Assembly (NCBI RefSeq): GCF_003790525.1 | Contig: NZ_CP033635.1 | DNA length: 64,000 bases | Source of the DNA: Escherichia coli | Lineage (GTDB): Bacteria; Pseudomonadota; Gammaproteobacteria; Enterobacterales; Enterobacteriaceae | Reading direction: 5' to 3' (one strand) | Shown: positions 1 through 64,000 of the stretch, piece by piece | Numbering within the stretch: position 1 is the first letter of the stretch | Layout: every line of letters begins with the position of its first letter | The notes under the pieces: model-generated | The model's database searches: none | What the model was told of the DNA's origin: nothing | The model's input: only the letters and a program-made list of their open reading frames with translations | Translations under genes and position numbers: made by a program

Positions 1-1
1 C

Positions 2-174
2 GCACTGGATATTCTGATTGCGTGGCTACAGGACAATATCGACTGCGAATCGGGAATTATCTTTGACAACGATGAGGATAGAACGGATTCGGCAGCACTG
101 TTGCCCTGTATCGAACAGGCCAGGGAGGATATCCGTATCCTGCGCCAGTTGCAGCTTCTGCAACAGAACCGGTG
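2..174 (+). CDS. 3' end of an island gene (start lies outside the window); acidic C-terminal tail, function unknown
   Basis: Frame 2 is open from the window edge to TGA at 172..174 (…ALDILIAWLQDNIDCESGIIFDNDEDRTDSAALLPCIEQAREDIRILRQLQLLQQNR*); a hairpin terminator follows. Confidence 0.45.
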
Positions 175-203
175 AGTCTTACTCACCAGACTTCATTCCA
201 CTG

Positions 204-236
204 ACGCCAGCCTGAACAGGGCTGGCGTTTTCATTT
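204..236 (+). terminator. Rho-independent terminator-like hairpin after the upstream island gene
   Basis: 9-bp perfect stem acgccagcc / ggctggcgt with 7-nt loop, followed by a T-rich tail (ttttcattt). Confidence 0.55.
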
Positions 237-259
237 ATCTGCAAAAAGGAATATCGATT

Positions 260-1126
260 ATGTCTGAAATCACAGCCCCCCGTCCGGAAGTGGTCAACGG
301 GCATACGGACGTTATCGGCTCAACCAGCATCCGCCACATTCTGGCTGTACGAAAGAGTGCGCTGCTGCAAATCGACACACTTATCCGGCAACTGGCAGAA
401 ATCTCGGTGCTGACGGAAAGCATCGGAGGTAAAACTGCACTGGACTGGGCCATGAAACAGGATTTTCGCTGCGGTTGCTGGCTGATGGAAAAACCGGAAA
501 CCGCAATGAAAGCCATCACCCGCAACCTTGACCGCGAAATCTGGCGTGATCTGATGCAACGTTCAGGGATGCTGTCATTAATGGATGCACAAGCCCGTGA
601 TACATGGTACCGGTCACTGGAGTACGATAATTTTCCGGAAATCAGCGAAGCAAATATCCTGAGCACGTTTGAACAACTGCACCAGAACAAAGATGAAGTG
701 TTTGAGCGAGGGGTGCTCAACGTTTTCAGAGGACTGAGCTGGAATTACAAAACCAATTCACCCTGCAAATTTGGCAGTAAAATTATCGTCAACAATCTGG
801 TGAGGTGGGACCGGTGGGGGTTTCATCTTATCACCGGACAACAGGCCGATCGACTTGCCGATCTGGAAAGAATGCTGCACCTGTTCAGCGGCAAACCGAT
901 CCCCGACAACCGGGAAAACATCACCATTCATCTGGATGATCACATCCAGTCTGTTCAGGGTAAAGAGGACTATGAAGATGAGATGTTCAGCATCAGATAC
1001 TTTAAGAAGGGCTCCGCGCACATCACGTTCAGGAAACCAGAGCTGGTTGACAGGCTTAATGATATTATTGCCAGACACTACCCGGAAGCCCTGGCAAGCA
1101 CAGTGAACAAAAGCCGCAAGGCATAA
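260..1126 (+). CDS. Hypothetical 288-aa island protein, function unknown (possibly DUF4942-like; unverified)
   Basis: Uninterrupted 867-nt ORF with AAGGAA ribosome-binding site 7 nt upstream of ATG; soluble-looking protein with no transmembrane segment or recognisable catalytic motif; sits between the upstream terminator and the ParDE module. Confidence 0.75.
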   Translation: MSEITAPRPEVVNGHTDVIGSTSIRHILAVRKSALLQIDTLIRQLAEISVLTESIGGKTALDWAMKQDFRCGCWLMEKPETAMKAITRNLDREIWRDLMQRSGMLSLMDAQARDTWYRSLEYDNFPEISEANILSTFEQLHQNKDEVFERGVLNVFRGLSWNYKTNSPCKFGSKIIVNNLVRWDRWGFHLITGQQADRLADLERMLHLFSGKPIPDNRENITIHLDDHIQSVQGKEDYEDEMFSIRYFKKGSAHITFRKPELVDRLNDIIARHYPEALASTVNKSRKA

Positions 1127-1165
1127 AAGAGGTATTTTACAATTCGCGAATATTAACTATTATTA

Positions 1166-1181
1166 ATTGATAGTAATCAAT
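1166..1181. promoter_or_regulatory. Palindromic putative operator in the parDE promoter region
   Basis: ATTGAT-agta-ATCAAT inverted repeat about 17 bp upstream of the parD start, next to a TATTAAT -10-like hexamer (1161..1167). Confidence 0.35.
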
Positions 1182-1197
1182 CGGCGAGAAAATAACC

Positions 1198-1461
1198 ATG
1201 CCTACCAGTGTATCCCTCAGTCCTTACTTTGAAACGTTTATCCGCGAACAAATAGAAAGTGGTCGGTACAACAATACAAGTGAAGTCATTCGTGCCGGAC
1301 TTCGTGCTCTGGAAGAACGGGAACAGCAGATAAAGCTTGAATCACTCCAGAGCGCCGTGGCCGCAGGCATCAACAGCGGTGAAAGTAAAAGTGCTGAAGA
1401 GGTATTCGGGCGACTGACGCACAAATACAAAAAGATGGCAGAAGGTGAACAGCCAATATGA
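1198..1461 (+). CDS. parD: Type II antitoxin, ParD family (ribbon-helix-helix)
   Basis: 87-aa protein MPTSVSLSPYFETFIREQIESGRYNNTSEVIRAGLRALEEREQQI… typical of ParD antitoxins; stop overlaps the next start (ATGA). Confidence 0.85.
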   Translation: MPTSVSLSPYFETFIREQIESGRYNNTSEVIRAGLRALEEREQQIKLESLQSAVAAGINSGESKSAEEVFGRLTHKYKKMAEGEQPI

Positions 1462-1784
1462 AACTGACTGTTTCACCATTAGCAGAACACGATCTTGAAG
1501 CTATAGGTGACTGGATCGCTCAGGATAATCCTGTCCGTGCAATCAGTTTTACCGAAGAGCTTTACCAACAATGTCTGTTGATAGCCGAATCGCCAGTACT
1601 CTACAGAGAAAGACCCGAGTTAGGGGCTGGGATCAGAGGTTGTTCGTATGGTCGTTACCTTCTGCTGTTCAGGGTACTGGATACTGAAGTTCGTATCGAA
1701 CGTATCGTTCATGGTTCCCGGGATATCAACAGGGTACTTGCAGAGCCAGACGACAAACCATCAGATCATTTCTGGCAGCCATAA
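1458..1784 (+). CDS. parE: Type II toxin, ParE/RelE superfamily
   Basis: 108-aa protein; 4-bp overlap with parD; size, basic C-terminal half and gene order fit a ParE toxin. Confidence 0.8.
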   Translation: MKLTVSPLAEHDLEAIGDWIAQDNPVRAISFTEELYQQCLLIAESPVLYRERPELGAGIRGCSYGRYLLLFRVLDTEVRIERIVHGSRDINRVLAEPDDKPSDHFWQP

Positions 1785-2031
1785 ACAAAATCTGTGCGTT
1801 AACGCTCCCTAACACAGGTAGCCAGGTATTTTATAAATCTCTGTATTTTGTTGTCACTTCGATTCCGCGATTCAGCATATCGAACCAGACAAAATGATTA
1901 CAACAAACCACAAGAAAGAGGGATTATAGCGTCAAAAGAATTCGAATTGCACATGGGGGCCTCATTGGTGGCCTCAAAAAGAACAAGGATAAAACAGTCG
2001 ATACAAAACAATTGGTTATATAACCAGTTTC

Positions 2032-2050
2032 ATTCCGAGTCCGGGCACCA
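2032..2050 (+). other. tRNA-Phe 3'-terminal 19-nt remnant (att core direct repeat, attR side); not a functional tRNA
   Basis: ATTCCGAGTCCGGGCACCA matches the acceptor/T-arm 3' end of E. coli tRNA-Phe including CCA; the 57 nt upstream (1975..2031) do not resemble the tRNA body. Confidence 0.8.
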
Positions 2051-2062
2051 AATTCATATAAA

Positions 2063-2088
2063 CGGACCTCCACGGAGGTCCGTTTTTC
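2063..2088 (+). terminator. Native pheU rho-independent terminator retained downstream of the tRNA remnant
   Basis: Stem cggacctc / gaggtccg with 4-nt loop followed by TTTTT, 12 nt after the CCA. Confidence 0.65.
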
Positions 2089-2666
2089 GTTTCAGGACGC
2101 CACAATTTAAGCGTTCTCCCTAAAAATCATTTCTACCGAACTCAACCAGATTCTCCCCACAACACCAGCATTTTGCGGGTATATCCCAATTCGGGGAAAT
2201 GTGTTCCTGAGCGATAGCACTGACTGACGTGAAATGTCGTGCGGCCCCGTGATGCTGTTGAACGTCAAATGACGTCATCAGGAGCGTAACGCATCCATAA
2301 AGCACAACATCGGTCTGAACGCCGACTGATAAGATTTTCTGAATGAGAACAAAGAGAAATGTATCGGTCCACTTGCTCATGCAAAGACTAACAATCCATT
2401 AAAATAGTAAGCGCTCCGGACAACTTTCCATGGATTATTTTCTGCACATTTTTCTTTGGCAAAGATGATGAATTTTGATGGTAAGGAAAATTACTTCTGG
2501 TTCTCAGTAAAATCCTTTCGTAATACTATGTAATCAAGAAGTTTATGGCGGGTAAAAATAACGTCTTGCATTCACCAATAATATGTAAATAAACCCATCT
2601 ATAGATGGAAAAAATAGATTATGGCAATTATCATTGCATCATTCCCTTTTCGAATGAGTTTCTATT

Positions 2667-4205
2667 ATGCAACAACCTGTAGTTCGCGTTGGCGAATGGC
2701 TTGTTACTCCGTCCATAAACCAAATTAGCCGCAATGGGCGTCAACTTACCCTTGAGCCGAGATTAATCGATCTTCTGGTTTTCTTTGCTCAACACAGTGG
2801 CGAAGTACTTAGCAGGGATGAACTTATCGATAATGTCTGGAAGAGAAGTATTGTCACCAATCACGTTGTGACGCAGAGTATCTCAGAACTACGTAAGTCA
2901 TTAAAAGATAATGATGAAGATAGTCCTGTCTATATCGCTACTGTACCAAAGCGCGGCTATAAATTAATGGTGCCGGTTATCTGGTACAGCGAAGAAGAGG
3001 GAGAGGAAATAATGCTATCTTCGCCTCCCCCTATACCAGAGGCGGTTCCTGCCACAGATTCTCCCTCCCACAGTCTTAACATTCAAAACACCACAGCGCC
3101 ACCTGAACAATCCCCAGTTAAAAGCAAACGATTCACTACCTTTTGGGTATGGTTTTTTTTCCTGTTGTCGTTAGGTATCTGTGTCGCACTGGTAGCGTTT
3201 TCAAGTCTTGAAACACGTCTTCCTATGAGCAAATCGCGTATTTTGCTCAATCCACGCGATATTGACATTAATATGGTTAATAAGAGTTGTAACAGCTGGA
3301 GTTCCCCGTATCAGCTCTCTTACGCGATAGGCGTGGGTGATTTGGTGGCGACATCACTTAACACCTTCTCCACCTTTATGGTGCATGACAAAATCAACTA
3401 CAACATTGATGAACCGAGCAGTTCCGGTAAAACATTATCTATTGCGTTTGTTAATCAGCGCCAATACCGTGCTCAACAATGCTTTATGTCGGTAAAATTG
3501 GTAGACAATGCAGATGGTTCAACCATGCTGGATAAACGTTATGTCATCACTAACGGTAATCAGCTGGCGATTCAAAATGATTTACTCCAGAGTTTATCAA
3601 AAGCGTTAAACCAACCGTGGCCACAACGAATGCAGGAGACGCTCCAGCAAATTTTGCCGCATCGTGGTGCGTTATTAACTAATTTTTATCAGGCTCATGA
3701 TTATTTACTGCATGGCGATGATAAATCATTGAATCGTGCCAGTGAATTATTAGGTGAGATTGTTCAATCATCCCCAGAATTTACCTACGCGAGAGCAGAA
3801 AAAGCATTAGTTGATATCGTGCGCCATTCTCAACATCCTTTAGATGAAAAACAATTAGCAGCACTGAATACAGAAATAGATAACATTGTTACACTGCCGG
3901 AATTGAATAACCTGTCCATTATATATCAAATAAAAGCGGTCAGTGCTCTGGTAAAAGGTAAAACAGATGAGTCTTACCAGGCGATAAATACTGGCATTGA
4001 TCTTGAAATGTCCTGGCTAAATTATGTGTTGCTTGGCAAGGTTTATGAAATGAAGGGGATGAACCGGGAAGCAGCTGATGCATATCTCACCGCCTTTAAT
4101 TTACGCCCAGGGGCAAACACCCTTTACTGGATTGAAAATGGTATATTCCAGACTTCTGTTCCTTATGTTGTACCTTATCTCGACAAATTTCTCGCTTCAG
4201 AATAA
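2667..4205 (+). CDS. cadC: CadC, membrane-integrated ToxR-like transcriptional activator of cadBA
   Basis: 512-aa ORF with N-terminal winged-helix DNA-binding domain, one transmembrane segment and periplasmic sensor domain; upstream of cadBA. Confidence 0.93.
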   Translation: MQQPVVRVGEWLVTPSINQISRNGRQLTLEPRLIDLLVFFAQHSGEVLSRDELIDNVWKRSIVTNHVVTQSISELRKSLKDNDEDSPVYIATVPKRGYKLMVPVIWYSEEEGEEIMLSSPPPIPEAVPATDSPSHSLNIQNTTAPPEQSPVKSKRFTTFWVWFFFLLSLGICVALVAFSSLETRLPMSKSRILLNPRDIDINMVNKSCNSWSSPYQLSYAIGVGDLVATSLNTFSTFMVHDKINYNIDEPSSSGKTLSIAFVNQRQYRAQQCFMSVKLVDNADGSTMLDKRYVITNGNQLAIQNDLLQSLSKALNQPWPQRMQETLQQILPHRGALLTNFYQAHDYLLHGDDKSLNRASELLGEIVQSSPEFTYARAEKALVDIVRHSQHPLDEKQLAALNTEIDNIVTLPELNNLSIIYQIKAVSALVKGKTDESYQAINTGIDLEMSWLNYVLLGKVYEMKGMNREAADAYLTAFNLRPGANTLYWIENGIFQTSVPYVVPYLDKFLASE

Positions 4206-12018: not shown

Positions 12019-12245
12019 AATATGACTCCTATCAATATTGAACACTCTGGGGACGCAAAACTTATTAACCCCGATCGATGATTCTCATATAGGAGATATT
12101 CTTTTTTTTTGCTCAGTAAAGGGGATGACTTGGGACAAAAAAACGCTCTCTCTGACCATTCTTTGTGCATCCCCCTACCCTTCAGATACTCTCCTGCATC
12201 CCCCCGCGGAGAGCATGAAAAATATTGTGACTCTGTACTCTCCCA

Positions 12246-62932: not shown

Positions 62933-64000
62933 TCAATCGTCAACTTTCACGCCTGCTGTTGTGCAGCATTCTCGGCAGCACGACGCTGATTTCCGGCTGT
63001 GCCCTGGTACGTAAGGATTCTGCGCCTCATCAACAGCTCAAACCGGAACAAATCAAACTGGCCGATGATATTCATCTTGCCAGCTCCGGCTGGCCGCAGG
63101 CGCAGTGGTGGAAACAACTCAATGACCCGCAGTTGGATGCTTTGATCCAACGGACGCTAAGTGGTTCACACACCCTCGCCGAAGCGAAACTGCGGGAAGA
63201 AAAAGCGCAATCGCAGGCCGATTTGTTAGATGCCGGTTCACAGTTGCAGGTGGCAGCGTTAGGGATGCTTAACCGCCAACGCGTCTCGGCGAACGGCTTT
63301 TTAAGCCCTTATGCGATGGATGCGCCCGCACTGGGGATGGACGGGCCGTACTATACGGAAGCCACAGTAGGTTTGTTTGCCGGACTGGATCTCGATTTGT
63401 GGGGTGTGCATCGCTCAGCGGTTGCCGCCGCCATTGGCGCGCATAATGCAGCGCTGGCAGAAACCGCAGCAGTAGAGCTATCGCTGACCACGGGCGTAGC
63501 GCAGCTTTATTACAGTATGCAGGCCAGCTATCAGATGCTCGATCTGTTAGAACAAACACGCGATGTGATTGATTACGCGGTGAAAGCGCACCAAAGTAAA
63601 GTGGCGCACGGTCTGGAAGCGCAAGTGCCTTTCCACGGCGCGCGGGCGCAAATTCTGGCCGTCGATAAACAAATTGCCGCCGTCAAAGGGCAAATCACTG
63701 AAACGCGGGAATCTCTGCGCGCATTGATTGGCGCGGGCGCCAGCGATATGCCGGAGATCAAACCGGTGGCATTACCGCGAGTCCAGACCGGCATTCCGGC
63801 AACACTCTCTTATGAGTTGCTCGCCAGACGCCCGGATCTGCAAGCCATGCGCTGGTATGTTCAGGCGTCATTAGATCAGGTGGATTCCGCGCGGGCGCTG
63901 TTCTATCCGAGCTTTGATATCAAAGCGTTTTTCGGCCTGGATTCTATCCACCTGGATACCTTATTCAAAAAAACCAGTCGCCAGTTCAACTTTATCCCAG
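62929..64000 (+). CDS. mdtP: Outer-membrane efflux lipoprotein (TolC/OprM family); 5' partial, runs off the window end
   Basis: ATG overlaps the mdtO stop (ATGA); lipoprotein signal with LISGC lipobox; frame open to the window end. Confidence 0.88.
   Translation, partial: MINRQLSRLLLCSILGSTTLISGCALVRKDSAPHQQLKPEQIKLADDIHLASSGWPQAQWWKQLNDPQLDALIQRTLSGSHTLAEAKLREEKAQSQADLLDAGSQLQVAALGMLNRQRVSANGFLSPYAMDAPALGMDGPYYTEATVGLFAGLDLDLWGVHRSAVAAAIGAHNAALAETAAVELSLTTGVAQLYYSMQASYQMLDLLEQTRDVIDYAVKAHQSKVAHGLEAQVPFHGARAQILAVDKQIAAVKGQITETRESLRALIGAGASDMPEIKPVALPRVQTGIPATLSYELLARRPDLQAMRWYVQASLDQVDSARALFYPSFDIKAFFGLDSIHLDTLFKKTSRQFNFIP

Follow-up and report, generated by a model that had tools for sequence, protein, structure and literature searches.

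CbtA and CbeA (YeeV and YeeU) of the K-12 prophage CP4-44 form a working two-gene pair. In K-12 MG1655 (NC_000913 2078178–2078347; L036 6179–6348) this prophage carries a deletion that extends from inside yeeW to the middle of a DUF957 gene, and about 80 nt of the 3' end of the latter, followed by a hairpin, survive unannotated between yeeW and yoeF. The DUF957 gene was catalogued in the papers on the LEE and SRL islands as L0009 and orf55, while the literature found on DUF957 and DUF4942 mentions both in gene lists only. RefSeq keeps the name DUF957, whereas the former Pfam model of the family, PF06117, appears to have been withdrawn from Pfam.

A second line of description comes from a June 2026 preprint (10.64898/2026.06.09.728211). 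It deals with the AntiFam entry ANF00264, which is labelled spurious ('frameshifted phage proteins'), is located downstream of or fused to DUF5983 next to cbtA/cbeA, and has a Serratia sp. protein as its first seed. The preprint reports a predicted compact helical fold and a confident predicted homodimer and suggests a programmed frameshift. ANF00264 resembles DUF957 in its vicinity to DUF5983 and cbtA/cbeA and in its Serratia seed, given that Serratia sp. DD3 encodes fusions of the DUF5983 N-domain with DUF957, and we infer that both are the same family. However, the preprint names the C-terminal DUF5983 domain as partner, while the Serratia fusions found here carry the N-terminal domain.

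The gene at the left edge of the window

The window, i.e. the whole stretch of 64,000 nucleotides of Escherichia coli DNA that was analysed, opens close to the right border of a CP4-type island with pheU as insertion site. The features of its first part are the following.

1–175, plus strand: 3' part of a DUF957-family gene in frame 2, comprising 57 codons and the stop codon TGA (173–175)
18–215, plus strand: frame-3 open reading frame of the mechanical list, spurious, with internal stops in orthologous loci and no family match
203–229, plus strand: G+C-rich hairpin resembling an intrinsic terminator, arms 203–213 and 219–229, loop 214–218
230–240, plus strand: T-rich hairpin tail, TTCATTTATCT, which together with the last two stem bases reads TTTTCATTTAT
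246–262, plus strand: Shine-Dalgarno motif AAGGA (246–250) and ATG (260–262) of the DUF4942 gene, within a conserved block TTTAT..AAGGAA..ATG
260–1126, plus strand: DUF4942 gene, 288 aa (PF13708, E 2e-69), invariable downstream neighbour by synteny; the DUF4942 region recurs within a phage PHROG profile of 548 positions named 'DNA methyltransferase'
2028–2050, plus strand: remnant of the tRNA-Phe (pheU) 3' end, the right attachment repeat that marks the island end (21 of 23 bases; 0 expected by chance)

Frame 2 is free of stops from base 2 onward (2–172) and terminates at TGA 173–175, its translation within the window being ALDILIAWLQDNIDCESGIIFDNDEDRTDSAALLPCIEQAREDIRILRQLQLLQQNR*. The initial annotation had described an upstream island gene that is cut by the window edge and open in frame 2 to position 174; gene and open frame were correctly recognized, while the end was off by a base or two. 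The first 3000 bases of the window are 100% identical in the strains XDL (NZ_CP043033) and CM2, which share the same cadC junction, and from this identity the source genome can be expected to share the 23 bases left of the window with these relatives as well. In strain XDL, RefSeq annotates the full coding sequence at window positions -22 to 175 (198 nt, 65 aa, WP_000839265.1; product MKSLTTETALDILIAWLQDNIDCESGIIFDNDEDRTDSAALLPCIEQAREDIRILRQLQLLQQNR). Thus the 23 nt outside the window correspond to the ATG and seven further codons, and a truncation by eight codons is trivial. Instead of a stop codon just beyond the edge, the upstream sequence holds a plausible start: the ATG lies 23 nt upstream of the edge, is accompanied by an AGGA Shine-Dalgarno motif and opens the N-terminal peptide MKSLTTETALDILIAWLQDNIDCESGIIFDNDEDR. 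Identification of the full protein from upstream sequence, which had been proposed, hence succeeded with the help of annotated identical genomes and led to DUF957.

Compared by megablast against complete E. coli genomes, window positions 1–1200 gave 150 records at ≥99% identity, and a 'DUF957 domain-containing protein' is annotated under the first window bases in all matches listed. The exact 65-aa sequence, also named Aec78, occurs on at least 996 contigs. Similarity over the domain of about 65 aa extends to 355 clusters with 75–98% identity among the matches listed, many of them named DUF957, and by this similarity the window gene is assigned to the DUF957 family. Since such a gene is already annotated in thousands of genomes, the finding as such is ordinary.

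That frame 2 is coding is reflected in its pattern of variation. In a gap-free core of 51 codons from 25 loci, the pairwise mean differences at codon positions 1, 2 and 3 were 0.22, 0.17 and 0.48, the median pN/pS was 0.275 and not a single locus contained a stop. Judged from this alignment, the frame is under purifying selection. The listed open reading frame at 18–215, in contrast, is interrupted by internal stops in 18 of the 25 loci, and the suspicion that it is spurious proved justified. An ATG start with a preceding purine-rich motif is present in 24 of 25 non-fusion DUF957 loci, and across loci the ATG follows the DUF5983 stop codon at a distance of 11–32 nt.

In strain XDL, the gene order is GTPase, DUF905, DUF932, anti-restriction, radC, DUF987, cbeA, cbtA, DUF5983, DUF957, DUF4942, parD and parE, followed by the tRNA-Phe 3' remnant, an integrase fragment, cadC, cadB and cadA. 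DUF957 is tightly attached to the genes before it: a spacer of 11 nt separates it from the DUF5983 stop codon, and DUF5983 in turn shares 4 nt with cbtA. When one genome per species was scanned, 33 related loci were obtained at 60–94% protein identity. The order radC, DUF987, cbeA, cbtA, DUF5983, DUF957, DUF4942 is kept in every one of these 33 loci with enough flank; two loci have an insertion ahead of DUF4942. The initial annotation had expected the identity of the upstream gene to help in interpreting the 288-aa protein as part of a multi-gene unit. For gene order this holds, given the strict synteny, but for function it does not, as the family is uncharacterised, and the hairpin sits between both genes.

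Further observations concern the surroundings of the gene. The right end of the island consists of the pheU remnant (23 nt, 2 mismatches), a native-looking terminator at 2060–2085 and an integrase pseudogene fragment at 2248–2407, after which cadC follows; ARAGORN found no intact tRNA within the window. Base for base, the window matches the XDL chromosome up to position 12110 and is out of register from about 12111 on, by an indel or an insertion relative to XDL. In other strains, an identical 1.2-kb copy is located at a second chromosomal site by yghD and the gsp operon. The copy of this yghD/gsp island in strain H9Ecoli (L001 8251–11478) harbours an ISEcp1-blaCTX-M-55 unit inside cbtA and is otherwise identical.

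The hairpin and the proposed transcription unit

The stem begins 28 nt past the DUF957 stop codon. With the sequence GACGCCAGCCT-GAACA-GGGCTGGCGTT (203–229), it comprises nine Watson-Crick pairs (204–212 with 220–228) and a G-U pair at each end, 11 bp in all, and the hairpin alone folds at -20.3 kcal/mol. The fold of the region 175–260 has a z-score of -3.5 against shuffles, and the hairpin was the top site of a terminator scan in which positions 1–2700 gave 8 sites while 2.7 were expected. A 9-bp stem with a T-tail had been seen at 204–236, coordinates that turned out right to one or two bases. No known RNA family was detected by Rfam on window positions 1–2700 (E ≤ 1).

In nearly all of the 33 loci, the hairpin occupies the same place in the interval from DUF957 stop to DUF4942 start. 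Wherever it exists among the related loci, a T-rich tail accompanies it; the degenerate locus L028 lacks the hairpin. Alignment of 24 distinct hairpin sequences showed that 95% of the cells pair and that four of ten pairs changed on both sides, the compensatory changes being A-U to G-C, G-C to C-G or U-A, C-G to U-A and A-U to U-G. The covariation score was reached by none of 500 shuffles, and pairing dropped to 21–47% in a control with slid partner columns. One locus deviates in its arrangement: L039 carries a hairpin of the same kind at 1149–1178 (GCGCCAGCC..GCTGGCG) upstream of a fusion gene and none between DUF957 and DUF4942. Consequently, the hairpin is usual, but not obligatory, at the DUF957/DUF4942 junction.

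A G+C-rich stem-loop after a stop codon, a T run adjacent to it and compensatory changes in the stem characterize this element as a probable intrinsic terminator. With Rho-independent terminators of E. coli it shares the G+C-rich stem of 9–11 pairs, the short loop and the adjacent T run. Unlike in standard terminators of this type, however, the T tract is interrupted (TTTTCATTTAT here, CTTTGCTTTAT in other genera), and the ribosome-binding site of the next gene follows within about 17 nt. The closeness of that site would make an attenuating or intercistronic terminator more likely than a full stop.

The idea that the hairpin limits, rather than ends, transcription is in line with the arrangement of the neighbouring genes. 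Only 30 nt, in which no consensus promoter was found, lie between hairpin and DUF4942 ATG, and the Shine-Dalgarno motif begins about 17 nt past the stem. The first promoter-like site downstream is located at 1136–1163 (TTTACA, 16 nt, TATTAT) ahead of parD/parE, which suggests that this pair may be expressed independently of DUF4942 from a promoter of its own. Upstream of the window, at a distance of about 3.6 kb, another strong hairpin (L002 16354–16383, -23.4 kcal/mol) with the same TTTCATTTAT tail was observed between DUF905 and DUF932, about 40 nt ahead of the next ATG. The two strong plus-strand hairpins bracket eight genes, from DUF932 to DUF957, and no other strong plus-strand terminator is predicted inside.

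From the placement of the hairpins and the lack of a consensus promoter ahead of DUF4942, the following model can be drawn. DUF957 would be the last cistron of an eight-gene unit composed of DUF932, anti-restriction, radC, DUF987, cbeA, cbtA, DUF5983 and DUF957. The hairpin at 203–229 would act as a leaky Rho-independent terminator that ends or stabilises most upstream transcripts, while the fraction reading through would supply the DUF4942 gene. At the remnant hairpin of CP4-44, a prophage that is perhaps unexpressed, a published map of K-12 3' ends (PMC7815308) has no entry, as far as its possibly incomplete supplementary text goes.

Alternatively, the hairpin might be an intercistronic RNA element, that is a barrier against 3'-5' exonucleases or a processing site, which creates a difference in stability along one mRNA and leaves transcription essentially unimpeded. 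The proximity of the DUF4942 Shine-Dalgarno motif and ATG, the lack of a consensus promoter in between and the interrupted U tract fit to this scenario, as does the second TTTCATTTAT-tailed hairpin between DUF905 and DUF932, which suggests a repeated 'punctuation' device shortly before a start codon. However, nine G+C-rich Watson-Crick pairs at -20.3 kcal/mol with a subsequent TTTT are the standard architecture of an intrinsic terminator. We consider the RNA element a possible, yet rather doubtful alternative, and both functions are not mutually exclusive, since transcripts that end at a leaky terminator keep its hairpin as a 3' protection.

Some further structures were encountered in the same region. 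The E. coli fold had suggested a long-range helix between the stretch before the hairpin and the DUF4942 Shine-Dalgarno motif; across 24 loci the duplex energies were no better than those of shuffles (mean z +0.3), and the helix was dismissed. The same applies to the hairpin as a repeated island element: its core GCCAGC..GCTGGC occurs once in the 43 kb of L002 (20 kb upstream of the window and the first 23 kb of the window) and once more, unrelated, at window position 63079. An imperfect hairpin across the DUF957 stop (167–189, CCGGTGAGTCTTACTCACCAG) was scored as terminator-like on the minus strand. It is confined to copies of the E. coli clade, and L005 has a 12-nt duplication there.

The DUF957 domain, its distribution and its possible role

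The DUF957 protein has a pI of 4.16. Its acidic charge is concentrated in the central loop, with eight D/E and one K/R among residues 18–38, while the C-terminal helix IEQAREDIRILRQLQLLQQNR is rich in Q, L and R and carries a net charge of +1. Of the acidic, helix-rich tail proposed by the initial annotation, the helix could thus be retained and the acidity could not. AlphaFold2, supplied with an alignment of 29 sequences, places helices at residues 6–21 and 37–63 and the loop 22–36 at lower confidence (mean pLDDT 82.7, pTM 0.67), so that a small acidic helix-loop-helix is the predicted fold. The invariant loop of the protein reads W-L-x-D-N ... F-D-N-D-E-x-x-T-D-S-x-x-L-L-P. A Foldseek comparison of the model with the PDB delivered nothing significant (best E 7.5). 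A marginal profile match to exocyst EXO84 among PDB sequences (E 0.004 over 31 residues) was treated as chance.

Among 5,426 complete E. coli genomes, 4,959 (about 91%) carry the DUF957 gene together with the hairpin, at a median of three copies. Genera with DUF957 loci include Escherichia, Citrobacter, Kluyvera, Superficieibacter, Tenebrionibacter, Trabulsiella, Edwardsiella, Mixta, Yersinia, Lelliottia and Serratia. The protein matched neither Pfam-A (2025) nor NCBIfam 20.0, even at E = 10, nor were matches obtained against PHROGs and PADLOC. In an exhaustive profile search of 1.84 billion representatives, just 134 proteins contained the domain at E ≤ 0.001. Besides the stand-alone form, these architectures comprise in-frame fusions of the DUF5983 N-domain with DUF957 (P0133, P0138, P0155), proteins with two DUF957 copies (P0179, P0229) and proteins of 118–223 aa in which the domain is N- or C-terminal.

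The fusions deserve a closer description. Serratia sp. DD3 (L029–L034) encodes six copies of 118–121 aa, e.g. at 3821–4177 and 2534–2914 of L033, and similar fusions are found in two further lineages (P0138, P0155). The fusion gene of Serratia sp. DD3 overlaps the cbtA stop, and in the two loci whose upstream context is complete (L033 and L034), a separate gene of 106 aa between radC and cbeA encodes the DUF5983 C-domain. In L039 (1216–2518), a fusion gene is followed by DUF4942, with neither cbeA nor cbtA nearby. The recurrence of the fusion, in at least three lineages, points to a joint action of both domains. An AlphaFold model of a natural fusion was of low confidence (pLDDT 58.7, pTM 0.49) and lends no support to a packing of the two domains against each other.

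Apart from islands, a DUF957-motif protein of 103 aa is present on more than 1,300 PLSDB plasmids. These are mostly conjugative IncHI2 plasmids, mostly of 180–370 kb, from Escherichia, Salmonella, Enterobacter and Klebsiella. This protein (WP_001165367.1) shares with the window protein the motif WLxDNIxxxSxIIFDNDEDNTxSxxLxP and 56% identity over residues 10–48, but differs from it by a C-terminal extension of 40 aa and by the lack of a hairpin after the gene. Its neighbour is DUF3085, in contrast to DUF5983 and DUF4942 at the island gene. Strain XDL itself harbours such a plasmid, pXDL-CTX-M-14 (IncHI2A; L040 5974–6781), where the DUF3085 gene follows the 103-aa gene after 4 nt. DUF3085 was considered as a relative of DUF5983 or DUF4942, and BLASTP found no such relation. 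A distant member was observed in L037 (6001–6672), a protein of 223 aa with an N-terminal DUF957-like domain, whose gene belongs to an array of about 28 small genes, all in one direction and without Pfam matches, that looks like a phage early region. The C-terminal part of this protein has matches among proteins of Klebsiella and Salmonella phages, hypothetical as well as Ea22-like ones. The purifying selection, the own start, the in-frame fusions and the presence on IncHI2 plasmids argue that DUF957 is a real protein domain.

Combining these lines of evidence, we favour the following reading, to which we assign a probability of roughly 0.7 on the basis of comparative sequence data. The window begins within a real, independently translated DUF957 gene of 65 codons, of which positions 1–175 represent the 3' 88%; this gene would be the last cistron of its unit, would be followed by a leaky terminator and would encode a partner module of the DUF5983 N-domain. 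The protein is thought of as a binding or oligomerisation module rather than an enzyme, which, together with the DUF5983 N-domain, may serve the establishment or anti-defence genes of mobile elements.

What such a module might do can be envisioned in different ways. On its own, DUF957 could act against host defence as a small acidic protein, for instance by mimicking or inhibiting a host DNA-binding defence factor, and be carried by islands, conjugative plasmids and phages. A length of 65 aa, a pI of 4.16 and an invariant acidic loop fit to this hypothesis. So do the location in the same gene array as an anti-restriction gene (PF03230-type) and radC and the spread over more than 1,300 plasmids, most of them conjugative, and over small-gene arrays of phage-like character. 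Because of this distribution among mobile elements and the neighbouring anti-restriction genes, a role in establishment or anti-defence seems plausible in general. However, neither PADLOC nor known anti-defence families gave a match, nor did a structural comparison, and the invariant residues are mostly hydrophobic with one short D/N/T cluster instead of an extended acidic surface. A stand-alone anti-defence protein is thus a tentative proposal at best. A comparably speculative picture unites several of these elements: DUF957 might be a genuine modular domain of mobile elements that Pfam has given up and AntiFam probably lists among its spurious entries. It might form a small acidic dimer that docks on the DUF5983 N-domain, or on other partners on plasmids, and act in the establishment of islands, IncHI2 plasmids and phages, for instance by neutralising a host defence or nucleoid protein, while the hairpin sets its ratio to the DUF4942 and ParDE genes.

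A different role, as third component of the CbtA/CbeA type IV toxin-antitoxin system, i.e. as a regulator or accessory antitoxin, would be suggested by the fact that in every island locus DUF957 is the second gene after cbtA, apparently in the same operon. Yet no obligatory co-occurrence with cbtA and cbeA was found. The copies on IncHI2 plasmids and in the phage-like array of L037 have no cbtA or cbeA neighbours, L039 encodes the fusion and DUF4942 without either gene, and K-12 CP4-44 contains cbtA/cbeA with DUF957 merely as the remnant of 80 nt. Because the domain occurs without cbtA/cbeA and K-12 possesses cbtA/cbeA without the domain, a third toxin-antitoxin component is improbable.

An improbable frameshift origin, and consequences

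The weakest explanation, which we regard as very improbable, is that frame 2 is not an independent gene at all, but either spurious or an extension of the preceding gene, DUF5983 (YeeW-like), that arises by programmed frameshifting. It can draw on the fact that no current Pfam-A or NCBIfam model matches the protein, on the 80–208 aa 'fusions' contained in databases, on several loci in which the DUF957 frame continues upstream without a stop across the DUF5983 3' end, and on the proposal made for what is probably the same family (10.64898/2026.06.09.728211). However, the frame is free of stops and under purifying selection, ATG and Shine-Dalgarno motif are conserved in nearly all loci, and DUF5983 ends 11–32 nt before that ATG. 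The offset to DUF5983 is +1 at some loci and +2 at others, which a single frameshift mechanism cannot serve, and both IncHI2 plasmids and other architectures contain the domain unaccompanied by DUF5983. In the true fusions (Serratia sp. DD3, P0138, P0155), finally, DUF957 shares one frame with the DUF5983 N-domain, so that no shift is needed. Neither a constant frame relation nor the lack of an independent start, as expected for a frameshift product, was thus apparent in the sequences compared. If ANF00264 is DUF957, the present data would support the preprint's view of a real family and, because of the own start and the variable frame relation to DUF5983, oppose its frameshift idea.

Taken together, a confident annotation of the first part of the window comprises a DUF957 coding sequence from -22 to 175 and a terminator at 203–240, while the frame-3 open reading frame is dropped. 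The DUF4942 gene appears to depend on read-through of the hairpin, which matters for expression studies of that module. For the family as a whole, the evidence for DUF957 as a real protein bears on its place in a library of spurious proteins and counts against an origin by programmed frameshift.
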